64,000 nucleotides of DNA from a virus (Duplodnaviria > Heunggongvirae > Uroviricota > Caudoviricetes), in IMG/VR virus record IMGVR_UViG_3300017989_002952, positions 18,891 to 82,890 of that record. One strand, given 5' to 3'. Shown in pieces: positions 50,229-57,115 of the stretch. The position numbers and the translations under genes are program-made. Every line of letters begins with the position of its first letter. The first letter of the stretch is position 1. Under the pieces are notes generated by a model that had not been told where the DNA came from, did no database searches, and saw nothing but the letters and a program-made list of their open reading frames with translations.

Positions 50229-50618
50229 CTATTCATAGGTGAATTCGTGCCAGGGTTGAAAGTAACTGTCATCGAGGTTAAAAGTTTGTAATAGATTCGC
50301 TACAGTTGGTATTATGGTTTCATCCGATTTTTTGAACTTTAGATCTTTTGGAAGACAAAGTTCTCCAGACGTTGGATGACAGTTTGGATGTACCCCATTA
50401 ATAACAACCCTCTTAAGCAAATCACTATCTGTAAAGTGTAAAGTGAACCCATGAAATACAAATTTATCTACTATGTCTGTAATGGGTCTCACTTCTCCTT
50501 TAAAGATAAGTTTCGTCGGAACTATTTCCATCTTAACGGGGACCCTTATCATTTCGTGTTCTCCTCCTACCTTTCCTACGCCGCACCTGTCTCGGCAATT
50601 AACTCTACGAAGTGACAC
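50229..50618 (-). CDS. ubiquitin-conjugating E2-like (UBC-fold) protein
   Basis: VHPNCHPTSGELCLPKDL matches the UBC active-site signature HPN(I/V)xxxGxICL(D)(I)L, including the catalytic Cys. With a start at 50618, the HPN sits at ~77 and the Cys at ~88, as in canonical E2s. Overlaps the upstream E1 3' end. Confidence 0.5.
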   Translation of the reverse strand: MSLRRVNCRDRCGVGKVGGEHEMIRVPVKMEIVPTKLIFKGEVRPITDIVDKFVFHGFTLHFTDSDLLKRVVINGVHPNCHPTSGELCLPKDLKFKKSDETIIPTVANLLQTFNLDDSYFQPWHEFTYE

Positions 50619-51451
50619 CCGTTATGACAACCAGGTGACACGATATAACTATTGAATACAAAGGGTAAGTCTAGTGAGGAAATTAGACAGGCTATCGCAT
50701 CGTTAGAATCTCGAATTGAGCCTGCTGGTATTTTTCTTTTGACAATTGGATATTCTCTACTTCCAACGAAGATGAATACTGGATGATTTTGGTTCATATC
50801 CCTTATTTTTGGTAGGTTTTCGTATAGGTTTGTTAATTTCCTTTCTCCCTCATGCGGCTCCAATATTTCGTCTGGTTTCCTTCTAACCAACGCCATGGAC
50901 TCCGCAATGTCTCTATTTAGATAATCCAACTCGATTTTATGTATGAGTTGTTTGTCTATGATTTCTTGTAGCAATCCCTTTTGTACCAATACTGCTGCGC
51001 TAAAGGCTGCTACTCGCAAATCCGTTTTCGATAAACGATGTAGATATCGACCCTGATGGTTTGACGCATATTCAACATCATGTCTTCCATCTACGATTAA
51101 ATAACGAGATGACATATACATTCGAACATGAATACTACCCTTTCGATCATATACATAATCTCTGCAATCAATCACCAAATCACATTCGGGTATTGGTGTT
51201 TTACCTTCGATAAATTTCTCATTTATTGCTGTCAGTATAACATCTTCTCTTCGCTGCCCAATCGAGCAGCAAAGAGCTTCAGTCTTTTGCTGACCTATAT
51301 CTCCCGTTCGAAAACAGGAGTTTCTAAGGTTCTTTTTCTCAACCTTATCATGATCAATAAGCACTAAATCCTTGATTTCATCAAGTTCAGAGAGACTTTG
51401 TGCTAAATGACTACCCAGACTACCACAGCCTACTATTGCAACTTTCTCCAC
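50576..51451 (-). CDS. E1-like (ThiF/MoeB family) adenylyltransferase
   Basis: VAIVGCGSLGSHLAQSL Rossmann GxGxxG, then LIDHDKVEKKNLRNS (a DxDxVExSNLNRQ-type motif). 291 aa. C-terminal CHNGCH Cys/His cluster. Confidence 0.6.
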   Translation of the reverse strand: MEKVAIVGCGSLGSHLAQSLSELDEIKDLVLIDHDKVEKKNLRNSCFRTGDIGQQKTEALCCSIGQRREDVILTAINEKFIEGKTPIPECDLVIDCRDYVYDRKGSIHVRMYMSSRYLIVDGRHDVEYASNHQGRYLHRLSKTDLRVAAFSAAVLVQKGLLQEIIDKQLIHKIELDYLNRDIAESMALVRRKPDEILEPHEGERKLTNLYENLPKIRDMNQNHPVFIFVGSREYPIVKRKIPAGSIRDSNDAIACLISSLDLPFVFNSYIVSPGCHNGCHFVELIAETGAA

Positions 51452-54582: not shown

Positions 54583-57115
54583 AATCCCAATCCTCCCTGT
54601 AATTGAATTCTGCTGATGAATGTTCTGTAAACCCGTTTTGAAGATTTGAAAATCCCCACTTCTTATAACCTCGCATCATGTCAATTCTAGCGAGGGTATA
54701 TCGAGGTGAGAGAAAACCAAACCTCTTCATGCTGTCCATGTAGTATGGTTCCATATTATTGGAATAACCATATCCCCACCGGTTGACCACATTCGTTAAA
54801 GCAAGTTTATTGTAATGATATCGTCGATAGATCGCAACAAATATCCGTTTATGATCTCTATCTTGGATATAAGTATCACCACATTGGGGTTTGAGTTTGC
54901 TCAGCTGAATTGGAGCATTCTTAAGTTTGTGCCACTTCGGATCTGTTATTTTATACACATCGAAGTTTACCAATGAGCTCGGACTCGCCCACTGTGTGCA
55001 TAGATTCGAGCAGAGCATCAATGGATAATGTCCTTCACCACAATCAGGCAAGAACCCAATAACTGTGTTAACATCTTTCTTTGGGAACATGTAAATACCA
55101 GCAGTCTTTGCCCTGATTTTATCACCAGATTTAATGCCTGCAAATTCTCGCATGATATGTCGAATTTTACCTGTCCAGATAAAACCATCAGCAAAGTCAA
55201 TATACTCATCTCTTCTTTCGTTTCCTTGACCATCAACTGTTTTGACAGTGATTTTATTGTCGGAAACTAAGAATTGCTTGATGGTTCGAATCTTCAGCAT
55301 TTCAACTGGGTCATCCCAATCGGCTACAACTACTTCATCACCGACCTTAAAGTTAATATCAATGTCAAAACTGGGAATATTGATTTCTTTTCGATCTTCG
55401 GACAAGATAGACTTCTTGACAACTTCAGAATCATAACGCCGATTGCTGACACCGCCAGAAGGAACCATAATTCCCTTTCCTCGTATTAACGGATATTGAG
55501 GTTTGTCTGTCTTTAGATTTGAGTGTAACTTACAGAAGATCCTGTATGCTGGCGGGACAAACATATCCTTAACAGGAGCTATTGTATGACTATCTCCTGT
55601 GAGAGAAACTCGATGCGTATCTGAGTGTCCTGTATCAACATCTTGAAACTTAGCCACCAGAGTTCCACGTTTATCATCAAAACCAACAAAGACGGCTTTA
55701 TTACCATAACAGAATGGTCTTTCACGCCTTCCACTCGACCTGCTTAGTAGATACACTTCGTCATTTTTCCCAACTTCTACATCACCGATAGTTACCTTAT
55801 TCTCATCAAAGATTTTGAATTTGAGGTTTTCCAAAAGATAATAATCAGCTCGATTACACTGAGCTTCAATTTTTCCATCTCTCGCTTTCCTCAATTTTGT
55901 GATCTTACGATACGAATTTTCAGGATACGTTAAAATGATGATATCTCCAACGGCAACTGTCAACCCATTAATCTCTACAGATTTAAGCAACTTGTCTCCA
56001 AGCATCTGTTTTGAAAAAGATTTCTGTCTTGATGGTGTCAACTCAACTTCAACATCTTCTCCACCCTCTTCCGGTTCTAGCACTACAGAAGTTGGAGATT
56101 CAAACCGATTTCCAATAAAGGTTTTGACATAATGATTCTTTTTCTTGTATGTCACTTCGTCACCAACAGCCAGAACAGCACCACCATCCAAAGCAGTTGA
56201 TTCCGTCACATTGATCAAGAGTCTTGAATTTTCTCTGATTTTTCTTCTGTTTGTGAAGACCCCTTTAAGAGAGTCAAAACAAAACATAGAATTACCCATA
56301 CCTGATACCGCATAATGTTTCAATGTATGTTCAACAGCACCTCCAAGTGTATAATCCTCCTTCTTCCATTTAACCCCATAGATAAACATAGGGTCTTTCA
56401 TGGAGTTATACTGCCAAGTAAGAAAGTCAGAGACTTCAGGCACTTTTGAGTAAGATTCATAGCGCTCCGAAAGATCTTTATTAAAGGAGTTGACCCAGAA
56501 TCTTTCAATAACACCGCTTGCTTGATCAAAGATGCCTCGCTTCGGTGTTTTGTTTTCAAAATCTCCCAAACATAATGAACCATCTCCGCCAATATTTGGG
56601 AGATTTGGTCTGAGGAGATAATCCTCCATACAAACTATCGGCTGTAATCGATAGTACGGTTTGGCGCACGACACACCACCTTTTGTCAGAAGGATAATAT
56701 AGATAATGTAAGGAAAGGCTAGCTGCATCCGATATGGTTTACGATTGTGTTTCAACCACTCGTCATAACCATATTCTTCCAACTTGCCTGTAATTTTGAA
56801 TTTCTCGATTGTTCCTTCTAAGTCCATGTCAACTGTAACATTCCTGAGTCGAGGTTCTTCCTCAATAATGACTAGTGCACTGTCGACACCAACTTGTTGT
56901 ACAAATCTGGTGTTCTGAGGAAGGAACGTTCCGAGTTCTAGATTTGATTTGGATCCAAGTCGTTGATAAAAATCTGCAGTTGGTACCAACCTTTTACGTC
57001 GAAACGGAGTAAATGTTTCGTCGTCAGGTATGTCTTCACTACTGACTACCAAACTTGCGTATTCACGGTTTAACACAATCTCTTCCATCATATTTGATCT
57101 CCTTTTGCAAATCAC
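54563..57115 (-). CDS. large multidomain protein (850 aa) with an E2-like (UBC-like) motif near residues 170-185
   Basis: LPNIGGDGSLCLGDF mirrors the UBC HPNIxxxGxICLDIL signature, with L replacing H. It lies directly upstream of, and overlaps, the JAB gene. The remainder is unassigned. Confidence 0.35.
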   Translation of the reverse strand: MICKRRSNMMEEIVLNREYASLVVSSEDIPDDETFTPFRRKRLVPTADFYQRLGSKSNLELGTFLPQNTRFVQQVGVDSALVIIEEEPRLRNVTVDMDLEGTIEKFKITGKLEEYGYDEWLKHNRKPYRMQLAFPYIIYIILLTKGGVSCAKPYYRLQPIVCMEDYLLRPNLPNIGGDGSLCLGDFENKTPKRGIFDQASGVIERFWVNSFNKDLSERYESYSKVPEVSDFLTWQYNSMKDPMFIYGVKWKKEDYTLGGAVEHTLKHYAVSGMGNSMFCFDSLKGVFTNRRKIRENSRLLINVTESTALDGGAVLAVGDEVTYKKKNHYVKTFIGNRFESPTSVVLEPEEGGEDVEVELTPSRQKSFSKQMLGDKLLKSVEINGLTVAVGDIIILTYPENSYRKITKLRKARDGKIEAQCNRADYYLLENLKFKIFDENKVTIGDVEVGKNDEVYLLSRSSGRRERPFCYGNKAVFVGFDDKRGTLVAKFQDVDTGHSDTHRVSLTGDSHTIAPVKDMFVPPAYRIFCKLHSNLKTDKPQYPLIRGKGIMVPSGGVSNRRYDSEVVKKSILSEDRKEINIPSFDIDINFKVGDEVVVADWDDPVEMLKIRTIKQFLVSDNKITVKTVDGQGNERRDEYIDFADGFIWTGKIRHIMREFAGIKSGDKIRAKTAGIYMFPKKDVNTVIGFLPDCGEGHYPLMLCSNLCTQWASPSSLVNFDVYKITDPKWHKLKNAPIQLSKLKPQCGDTYIQDRDHKRIFVAIYRRYHYNKLALTNVVNRWGYGYSNNMEPYYMDSMKRFGFLSPRYTLARIDMMRGYKKWGFSNLQNGFTEHSSAEFNYREDWDYVQCLD

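Follow-up and report, generated by a model that had tools for sequence, protein, structure and literature searches.

Conjugation of ubiquitin-like proteins (Ubls) in prokaryotes has so far been shown in host anti-phage systems (CBASS Cap2/Cap3, Bil and Bub) and for the archaeal SAMPs. A further group is PRTRC (ParB-related, ThiF-related; NCBIfam TIGR03735-03742), which we take to be the operon type '6d' of Iyer, Burroughs & Aravind 2006 and for which our literature search turned up no experimentally established function. Operons of type 6d lie on mobile elements and combine a Ubl with a helical protein, a His-less E2, a JAB peptidase and an E1 (PMC1779556). In the BilABCD systems (Type I = 6E, Type II = 6C/CEHH), the JAB enzyme cuts off a short non-conserved stretch that BilA-type Ubls carry after a conserved Gly. 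Some Ubls of these systems are multi-domain or tandem proteins, and in the E1, BilD, one adenylation domain is active and the other inactive (PMC10557695). Viral cases described earlier are the Ubl-containing TAPI and the JAB-NlpC/P60 protein TAPK of lambda and T1 (PMC1779556), and the Asgard virus Nidhogg, which has three ThiF homologues, E1-like genes only, with a proposed role in hijacking host Ubl (10.1101/2021.07.29.454249). Here we describe a seven-gene module in a stretch of 64,000 nucleotides from a tailed phage (positions 18,891 to 82,890 of IMG/VR record IMGVR_UViG_3300017989_002952; hereafter the 64-kb window). The module encodes E1-, E2-, JAB- and Ubl-like proteins and probably performs Ubl-protein conjugation.

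In the order of transcription, the module comprises a large E2-like protein (E2L), a JAB metallopeptidase (JAB), a ThiF-family protein (ThiF1), a modifier (Ubl), an optional protein (Unk), a second ThiF-family protein (ThiF2) and a minimal E2 (E2S). We assessed conservation over about 60 unique orthologues per protein, and over 144 representatives for E2S. The putative catalytic residues (both E2 cysteines, the Asn close to each of them, the E1 Cys and the JAMM residues) show absolute conservation at identities down to ~25%. Since the motifs are invariant across samples of this size, they are not chance matches. In targeted full-text searches of the literature we came across no account of a Ubl cascade encoded by a phage, and E1, E2, JAB or Ubl genes are mentioned neither in a comparative survey of jumbo phages from 2021 nor in a review from 2026. 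The carrier and the architecture are new and the purpose presumably so; the chemistry is familiar.

Component proteins and their conserved residues

A sequence-only reading of the window had assigned to these genes two E1s, two E2-like domains, a JAMM/JAB peptidase and a Ubl with an N-terminal SAP domain. All seven minus-strand open reading frames (ORFs) were found where that reading had placed them, and the motifs it cited are present at the codon level. As detailed below, the Ubl, the peptidase, the first E1 and both E2-like domains were borne out, and the status of the second ThiF protein as an E1 became doubtful.

The Ubl starts with a SAP/Rho_N helix-extended-helix motif (residues 6-41; Pfam Rho_N, E 1e-7), continues through a Lys-rich linker and closes with a beta-grasp-like domain that ends ...KPAGRKG-stop (52204-52227). 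Orthologues of the Ubl gave weak but consistent profile matches to ThiS (6 of 7), TGS (5 of 7) and Ub-Mut7C (3 of 7), and the C-terminal part aligned in hhalign with Urm1 (P 6.5e-4) and MoaD (P 1.1e-3); the protein of the window itself scores 14.2 bits against ThiS, where the cut-off is 22.5. The terminal Gly is present in 58/58 orthologues, which together with the Rho_N match and the ThiS, TGS and Ub-Mut7C affinities supports the reading of the protein as a Gly-ended Ubl that combines SAP with a beta-grasp domain. In ~40% of the orthologues this Gly is followed by 1-6 further residues, most often a single Cys. One locus (L047:12362-13375; IMGVR_UViG_3300033146_002768) encodes a head-to-tail di-(SAP-Ubl) in a 338-aa ORF. 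The second copy begins directly after the ...KPAGRKG of the first, so that the precursor resembles polyubiquitin genes. In two further loci (L049 and L057) two SAP/Rho_N motifs precede a single Ubl domain. The extensions and the di-Ubl make sense only if a peptidase cuts after the Gly, as the JAB enzyme BilC does in BilA (PMC10557695).

The JAB protein contains the motif HSHCNFSAFHSGTD (54154-54195), with Glu84 further upstream. The complete metal site (Glu84 ... His130-Ser-His132 ... Ser140 ... Asp143) is conserved in 62/62 orthologues, as is a CxxC pair past the peptidase domain (Cys326 and Cys329; 53596-53607). Pfam Prok-JAB (PF14464) matches all eight orthologues searched (best E 1.4e-6), and so does NCBIfam PRTRC_A (8/8; best E 4.1e-13). 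The copy in the window reaches 19.2 bits with the former (E 1.2e-3; gathering cut-off 25 bits) and 31 bits with the latter (E 1.8e-7; cut-off 101.8). The invariant metal site and the Prok-JAB matches of the orthologues support the JAMM/JAB assignment. In some relatives the protein reaches 529-546 aa and carries extra zinc-ribbon-like CxxC pairs (L002:12577-14166, L008:12113-13753).

ThiF1 carries the motifs GLGGVG and DGDAYEHKNLQRQ and matches Pfam ThiF (PF00899) at 71.2 bits (E 9.2e-20; cut-off 28.1). The GLGGVG loop, Asp37, Arg48 (NxxRQ), Lys61, Asp101 (VDNH) and the crossover-loop Cys168 (52874-52876) are intact, each in 60/60 orthologues. Cys168 aligns with Cys187 of MoeB. ThiF1 is thus a bona fide ThiF-family protein with what reads as a complete adenylation site, and is a predicted thioester-forming E1. 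Its top NCBIfam matches are ThiF/MoeB models (~1e-14), and PRTRC_ThiF matches at 44.3 bits (E 1.3e-11; cut-off 144.75). The last ~40 residues of ThiF1 overlap the start of the Ubl gene in another frame (52574-52680, 107 nt). This extension is shared with the closest relative (L006/L011), more distant orthologues ending at ~226 aa, and it is probably a lineage-specific loss of a stop codon, not a functional extension.

ThiF2 also belongs to the ThiF family (E 1.7e-16, 60.5 bits against the same Pfam cut-off of 28.1), with the match restricted to residues 3-100. The E1 matches obtained in a profile search of the PDB are likewise confined to residues ~3-104, with Cap2 at E 1.5e-7. The N-terminal half of the Rossmann fold is retained (GCGSLG, Asp33, Lys56 and DCRD), and the sequence diverges past residue ~100. 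The Arg of NxxRQ is absent, the Mg-binding Asp98 is replaced by Asn in 6/59 orthologues, and there is neither a crossover-loop Cys nor any conserved Cys beyond DCRD. The C-terminal domain of ~75 aa ends in a nearly invariant ...ELIxETGAA-COOH (50576-50605; ...ELIAETGAA in the window), where the Gly at position -3 is kept in 57/59 orthologues and the final Ala in 58/59. This tail is never extended, whereas that of the Ubl often is. In hhalign the C-terminus showed no similarity to Ub, ThiS, MoaD, Urm1 or the Ubl of the same cluster. The best PADLOC matches of ThiF2 are the CBASS E1-E2 (Cap2) models (E ~1e-12, compared with ~5e-6 for ThiF1). ThiF2 also matches the 6A-MBL cap2_3 model (1.3e-9). 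Judged by these residues, ThiF2 is most probably an E1 paralogue that has partly degenerated. The degenerate active site suggests that it may be a non-catalytic partner of ThiF1 and/or an adaptor of E2S, by analogy with the adenylation domain that is inactive in eukaryotic E1s and in BilD. Its C-terminal domain could then recruit an E2 in the manner of a ubiquitin-fold domain.

E2S has an HPN motif at 50382-50390 and a predicted catalytic Cys66 at 50355-50357. Its AlphaFold2 model, built from a 32-sequence alignment, is confident (pLDDT 92.5, pTM 0.84), and the best structural matches of the model are E2 enzymes, including alignments with Cap2 and a CdnG-associated E2. Profile alignment with canonical E2s in hhalign gave P 2.6e-4 over 81 columns, in register. 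Among the 144 representatives, His and Cys are each present in 144, Asn in 142 and Pro in 140. Because of the confident model, its structural matches, the HPN...Cys conservation and the profile alignment, we regard E2S as a minimal UBC-fold E2, as predicted by the modelled structure. It shares with eukaryotic E2s (UQ_con) the HPN triad and the core of beta-meander and helix 2, with the Cys following 9 residues later (8 in UbcH5), but it is only 107 aa long; judging from its length and secondary structure, helix 1 at the N-terminus and the helices at the C-terminus are apparently missing. The small UBC-like E2 with a catalytic Cys proposed earlier thus came through the AlphaFold and Foldseek-type comparison and failed the UQ_con profile check: UQ_con (PF00179) matched neither E2S nor six of its orthologues at E<=10, nor ten divergent members. 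No match was found in Pfam, NCBIfam, PHROGs or PADLOC. A word-indexed single-sequence search recovered E2S itself and one relative, and an alignment-based search was needed for more; an exhaustive search with a hidden Markov model (HMM) puts the family at 307 cluster representatives at 50% identity.

E2L carries the motif LPNIGGDGSLCLG (56564-56602), which contains Asn174 (56594-56596) and Cys182 (56570-56572). Both are conserved in 59/59 unique orthologues and Gly184 in 58/59; no His stands ahead of the Pro-Asn, so the HPN triad is incomplete. Pfam Prok-E2_D (PF14460) matches 11 of 20 orthologues (best E 2.7e-8) and NCBIfam PRTRC_B matches 3 of 20 (E of at least 1e-3), while the protein in the window scores 14.6 bits with Prok-E2_D (E 0.028, residues 167-218; gathering cut-off 25 bits). 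The Prok-E2_D matches and the conserved Asn174 and Cys182 support the E2-like domain proposed for this protein, and kinship to the Prok-E2_D family is credible on sequence grounds. With canonical E2s, hhalign aligned a 17-residue PN...C stretch only (P 5e-3). The alignment of E2S with the E2 domain of E2L was not significant, which indicates that the two E2s are not recent duplicates. We found 24 full-length homologues of 816-985 aa. The AlphaFold2 model (pLDDT 81) has an N-terminal alpha/beta region followed by strand-rich modules, and in this model the part beyond the E2 domain is an SH3/Tudor-like beta-barrel array; a structure search of BFVD returned uncharacterised, repeat-driven matches with low TM-scores and nothing else. 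Within the barrel region lies a second conserved motif, PLxLCSNxCTxW (residues 698-709; 55004-55021), in which Ser703, Asn704 and Trp709 are kept in 59/59 orthologues and Cys702 in 57/59. Its role could be structural, or it could form another active site or a binding site.

Unk has no family match in Pfam, NCBIfam, PHROGs or PADLOC and no detectable relatives outside the clade. It is present in ~40% of the related loci and is poorly conserved, with 3 invariant columns only. Profile searches of the PDB with the Ubl, JAB and E2S gave chance-level matches only.

Relation to described systems and distribution in the phage clade

The sequence-only reading had likened the module to cascades of the Bil, CBASS and 6E kind. 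All the component types are indeed present, but the nearest named relatives are PRTRC_A, PRTRC_B and Prok-E2_D, not 6E/Bil or CBASS. No other named family recognises the phage JAB and E2L specifically. The likeness to PRTRC extends to a stand-alone Ubl with a C-terminal Gly, a His-less E2, a separate JAB and a separate ThiF-type E1, and both are found on mobile or selfish DNA. By sequence, the module is a distant relative of PRTRC and not a member, because the scores lie far below the curated thresholds and neither a ParB partner nor PRTRC_C-F was found: the NCBIfam models PRTRC_C/D/E/F gave no match for the Ubl, Unk or E2S, and the precomputed Pfam matches within +/-10 kb in seven related loci include no ParB domain. 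In contrast to PRTRC, the phage E2 domain shares its polypeptide with ~600 residues of beta-barrels, the phage Ubl carries SAP/Rho_N, and the module has one more ThiF protein and one more E2, of the HPN type. It is carried by a jumbo phage of lytic type and not by a plasmid or an integrative and conjugative element.

With Bil the module shares the logic of Ubl, E2, JAB deubiquitinase and E1, and the two-domain BilD is a possible parallel to ThiF2 and ThiF1, which are encoded here by separate genes. In PADLOC, however, BilA, BilB and BilC have no match in the module, and BilD matches marginally (E 1.9e-3) over the Rossmann part of ThiF1. Unlike Bil, the module has two E2s, one of them giant, and its genes are those of a virus and not of a host. 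With type II CBASS the common ground is Cap2, an E2-E1 fusion whose E1 portion is matched by ThiF2 and ThiF1 and with which E2S aligns structurally, and Cap3, which like the phage JAB is a JAB reversing or processing enzyme. The PADLOC E1-E2 matches of the ThiF proteins cover ~70-115 generic Rossmann residues only. Further differences from CBASS are the separate E1 and E2 genes and the dedicated Ubl, and no CD-NTase or effector gene was found in the cluster. Apart from weak matches of the JAB and ThiF domains to CBASS and Bil models, no PADLOC model matches JAB, and none matches E2L or the Ubl; PHROGs and PADLOC together return nothing beyond generic ThiF-domain matches. As for the earlier viral cases, neither TAPI/TAPK nor Nidhogg has an E2, and the lambda-type pair has no E1 and sits in the tail module. 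Compared with the sulfur carriers ThiS and MoaD, the phage Ubl ends in Lys-Gly instead of Gly-Gly, carries SAP/Rho_N and can be made as a tandem precursor.

Relatives of the module were found with HMMs built from the module alignments; a scan of viral sequences with the single E2L sequence had yielded none, whereas the alignment-based scan succeeded. The order E2L-JAB-ThiF1-Ubl-(Unk)-ThiF2-E2S is identical in all ~65 complete loci found via E2L, at E2L identities of 25-52%. To avoid the circularity of E2L-based retrieval, we also sampled independently through rpoC and found all six core genes in 53 of the 55 viral contigs with enough upstream sequence. The E2L family occurs almost exclusively in viruses, with 61 loci in IMG/VR compared with 2 short contigs of metagenome-assembled genomes (MAGs) among 185,579 species genomes. 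Searches of 50,697 phage records with the cluster (megablast) and with E2L (tblastn) gave no match, so the clade is known from metagenomes only. The same protein set is found on metagenomic contigs of ~180 kb and relatives reach 244-277 kb; the clade consists of uncultured jumbo myoviruses with contigs of up to ~277 kb. The module genes carry bacterial-style Shine-Dalgarno sites. In two cases the block lies within MAGs labelled Candidatus Thorarchaeota and Thermoplasmatales (L002, GCA_048882605.1, a 255-kb contig, and L010, DAOVGR010000079.1); these contigs appear to be viral and to have been binned together with archaeal genomes.

Across the clade the genes are collinear in the order SbcD/SbcC, radical SAM, WYL_2, small ORFs, the Ubl module, a small ORF, rpoC and rpoB (43509-62872 in the window). 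Upstream of this block, relatives have a helicase, a PTPS/QueD-like gene and a topoisomerase. The radical-SAM and PTPS genes point tentatively to a pathway for modifying nucleobases. On the evidence of gene order, the module is a fixed, vertically inherited part of the clade genome and not a movable island, and we rejected an acquired defence island in view of the fixed position and the clade-wide collinearity. The claim that the module belongs to a phage and not to a host defence island stands, given the phage structural genes in the window and the fixed block. Nor did we accept adjacency to the RNA polymerase genes as proof that the two are functionally connected: collinearity extends over the entire block from SbcC to rpoB, and the adjacency is therefore not independent evidence of such a tie.

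Proposed function and alternative explanations

The reading that the module conjugates its Ubl to proteins would involve the following steps. JAB would trim the Ubl precursor, which has 0-6 extra residues or, in L047, is a di-Ubl, and so expose the C-terminal Gly; it would probably also reverse Ubl conjugates. ThiF1 would adenylate this Gly and form a thioester on Cys168, from which the Ubl would pass to an E2 cysteine, Cys182 of E2L and/or Cys66 of E2S. The conserved Asn beside each E2 cysteine would support aminolysis, and the Ubl would become attached to a lysine of the target. The SH3/Tudor-like barrels of E2L may choose this target, making E2L an E2/E3 hybrid, and the SAP/Rho_N motif of the Ubl would give the tagged protein a DNA- or RNA-binding handle. 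These chemical steps are those that the identified parts would be expected to carry out. The surrounding early and replication-transcription genes suggest action in infection rather than in virion assembly. A more specific proposal is that a split E1, with ThiF1 as the catalytic member and ThiF2 recruiting E2S through its ubiquitin-fold-like domain, works with the E2L hybrid to attach the SAP-Ubl to infection proteins as a SUMO-like viral regulator. The transcription and replication machinery of the host or the phage would be the obvious candidates for targets. We put this forward tentatively and, taken as a whole, consider it unlikely.

If conjugation is correct, no other phage is known that writes a Ubl modification of its own, and the module would offer a tractable way to study what tagging proteins brings a virus, as well as experimental access to PRTRC/6d-type machinery. 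The module is a fixed core block in a diverse and environmentally widespread phage clade. It also bears on the assembly of the eukaryotic ubiquitin system, through its barrel-fused E2, 107-aa HPN E2, SAP-Ubl, di-Ubl and possible split E1 pair.

Several observations weigh against this reading. We infer conjugation from homology and conserved residues only, and the matches to the named Ubl-system families are all below the curated cut-offs. The beta-grasp assignment of the Ubl comes from weak profile matches (E 0.008-0.1) and hhalign alignments at P ~1e-3, with none in the PDB. E2L has no His where the HPN triad would require one, and ThiF1 and ThiF2 both lack the N-terminal helix that bears the arginine finger of MoeB. 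Furthermore, some loci have parts of the module only. L141 (IMGVR_UViG_3300005573_000857, 92 kb) lacks E2L-JAB-ThiF1-Ubl, as far as the observed contig goes, and keeps Unk-ThiF2-E2S, in the order WYL_2, a 119-aa ORF and Unk-ThiF2-E2S-rpoC (L141:7287-10001). Its ThiF2 has ETASA instead of ETGAA at the tail and DTRD instead of DCRD, and the HPN...Cys of its E2S is intact. L016/L105 (IMGVR_UViG_3300005264_000068) has no detectable E2S and keeps E2L-JAB-ThiF1-Ubl-ThiF2, the interval between ThiF2 and rpoC holding a small conserved ORF only. These variants argue for modularity, and the seven genes are thus not a strictly indivisible unit.

The same variants favour an explanation in which two sub-systems lie side by side: a PRTRC-like set of E2L-JAB-ThiF1-Ubl, and a split Cap2-like pair of ThiF2 and E2S acting on the C-terminus of ThiF2 or on another protein, in the style of CBASS, where an enzyme is conjugated through its own C-terminus. 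One contig keeps Unk-ThiF2-E2S without the other four genes and another lacks E2S only. The greater closeness of ThiF2 than of ThiF1 to Cap2 fits this explanation, as do the tail of ThiF2, nearly invariant to its last residue and never extended, and a strand-strand-helix-strand-strand pattern that we read from the alignment of its C-terminal ~75 residues. On the other hand, the adenylation site of ThiF2 is weakened, with no NxxRQ Arg, Asn for Asp98 in 10% and no crossover-loop Cys, and the C-terminus is unlike Ub, ThiS, MoaD, Urm1 and the cluster's own Ubl in hhalign. The L141 tail, in which the Gly at -3 is changed, looks as if the constraint had relaxed with the gene loss. We regard the two-part explanation as doubtful.

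The same conjugation chemistry might instead be accessory cargo for conflict, used in superinfection exclusion, in Bil-like defence, or in a counter-defence that strips host Ubl or cGAS conjugates or competes with their formation. To date, all bacterial Ubl systems that have been studied by experiment act in conflicts between phage and host (PMC10557695, 10.1101/2023.09.04.556158, PMC10097602); the JAB and ThiF domains match CBASS and Bil models weakly, and the Unk gene varies between loci. Accessory islands, however, do not hold a fixed position in a collinear SbcC...rpoB block at 25-52% identity as this module does. It was not found in cellular genomes, and PADLOC models match none of E2L, JAB, Ubl and E2S. 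We judge an accessory conflict role improbable; a counter-defence function, for its part, would concern the target and not the architecture and is compatible with these findings.

A sulfur-carrier pathway, in which the Ubl would be a ThiS/MoaD-type carrier matured by JAB and adenylated by ThiF1 and its thiocarboxylate would donate sulfur for a cofactor or for tRNA or DNA modification, has on its side the affinities of the Ubl (ThiS, MoaD, Urm1 and TGS only), the ThiF/MoeB models at the top of the ThiF1 matches and the radical-SAM and QueD-like PTPS genes of the collinear block with their hint of nucleotide modification, but is very improbable in the face of two E2-fold proteins with invariant Cys and Asn that are co-inherited with the Ubl (to our knowledge, sulfur-carrier systems have no E2), of ThiF proteins with no rhodanese domain and precomputed Pfam lists of the related-locus neighbourhoods with no rhodanese, cysteine desulfurase or sulfurtransferase, and of a modifier that ends KG instead of GG, carries SAP/Rho_N and forms a tandem di-Ubl in L047.

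Gene layout and genomic surroundings

The positions of the module genes and of the features around them are collected in the table.

Table. Features of the module and its surroundings in the 64-kb window.
Feature	Position	Strand	Description	Basis or remark
Seven-gene module	50229-57115	minus	co-oriented, tightly packed genes	ORF list of the 64-kb window
E2L	54563-57115	minus	850 aa, E2-like domain and predicted barrel array	
E2-like core of E2L	56336-56923	minus	residues ~65-260	approximate
JAB	53374-54582	minus	402 aa, JAMM/JAB metallopeptidase	
ThiF1	52574-53377	minus	267 aa, E1-like adenylating enzyme (predicted)	
Ubl	52204-52680	minus	158 aa, SAP/Rho_N and beta-grasp-like modifier	
Unk	51527-52138	minus	203 aa, optional member	no family match
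ThiF2	50576-51451	minus	291 aa, second ThiF-family protein	
E2S	50229-50552	minus	107 aa, predicted minimal UBC-fold E2	ORF extendable to GTG 50618
up140	57112-57534	minus	140 aa, conserved upstream neighbour	immediately precedes E2L in nearly every related locus
Small ORF	49969-50217	minus	82 aa, between E2S and rpoC	
Small ORF	49731-50000	minus	89 aa, between E2S and rpoC	
RNA polymerase beta'	47019-49727	minus	context, downstream of module	PHROG
RNA polymerase beta	43509-46559	minus	context, downstream of module	PHROG
Tail sheath	2865-4847			PHROG profile
Baseplate wedge	15047-17545			PHROG profile
Tape measure	20032-24918			PHROG profile
Large terminase	25802-27478			PHROG profile
SbcC-like nuclease subunit	60692-62872			PHROG profile

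The junctions within the module are overlapping or close, as had been proposed: E2L and JAB overlap by 20 nt, JAB and ThiF1 by 4 nt and ThiF1 and Ubl by 107 nt, and the remaining gaps of 11-75 nt contain Shine-Dalgarno-like GGAGG/AAGGAG sequences. A terminator scan detected no terminator-like site on the minus strand inside the cluster, and the counts of a promoter and terminator scan were not above the shuffled expectation. Because of the overlapping or short junctions, the Shine-Dalgarno sites and the lack of an internal terminator-like site, we read the module from its sequence as a predicted operon. Between the stop codon of the Ubl gene and the Shine-Dalgarno site of the next gene, the minus strand can form a hairpin (52139-52206; -31.8 kcal/mol, z -4.4 relative to shuffles) that has no U-run. 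This hairpin could raise the ratio of Ubl to enzyme expression.

Two gene starts call for comment. The sequence-only reading had E2S begin at GTG 50618, giving 129 aa; a start at ATG 50552 is most likely, with GGAGG upstream and in agreement with gene call P0025. E2L probably starts at ATG 57088 or 57091, the gene call P0001 being 841 aa long.

On the upstream side, the stop of up140 abuts or overlaps the start of E2L, and a Pfam profile search gave no family match for up140. Downstream, the cluster had been described as lying directly beside the RNA polymerase genes. It shares their block but is not literally adjacent, since the two small ORFs precede rpoC. The one of 89 aa is widely conserved among the related loci, and neither has a significant family match in Pfam. 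All three ORFs are possible members of the module. The RNA polymerase genes match PHROG families of RNA polymerase beta subunits (E down to 1e-97), and their orthologues carry the Pfam domains RNA_pol_Rpb1/Rpb2. With its structural and terminase genes, the 64-kb window is part of the genome of a large tailed phage. A tRNA search of the whole window found none. The G+C content peaks at 0.486 in 30001-32000, compared with ~0.38-0.41 elsewhere in the window. The peak spans ORFs 29770-30879 and 30907-31287 and the start of ORF 31331-32653, the last of which matches PHROG 11908 (function unknown; E 3e-73), and these ORFs may be highly expressed structural genes.

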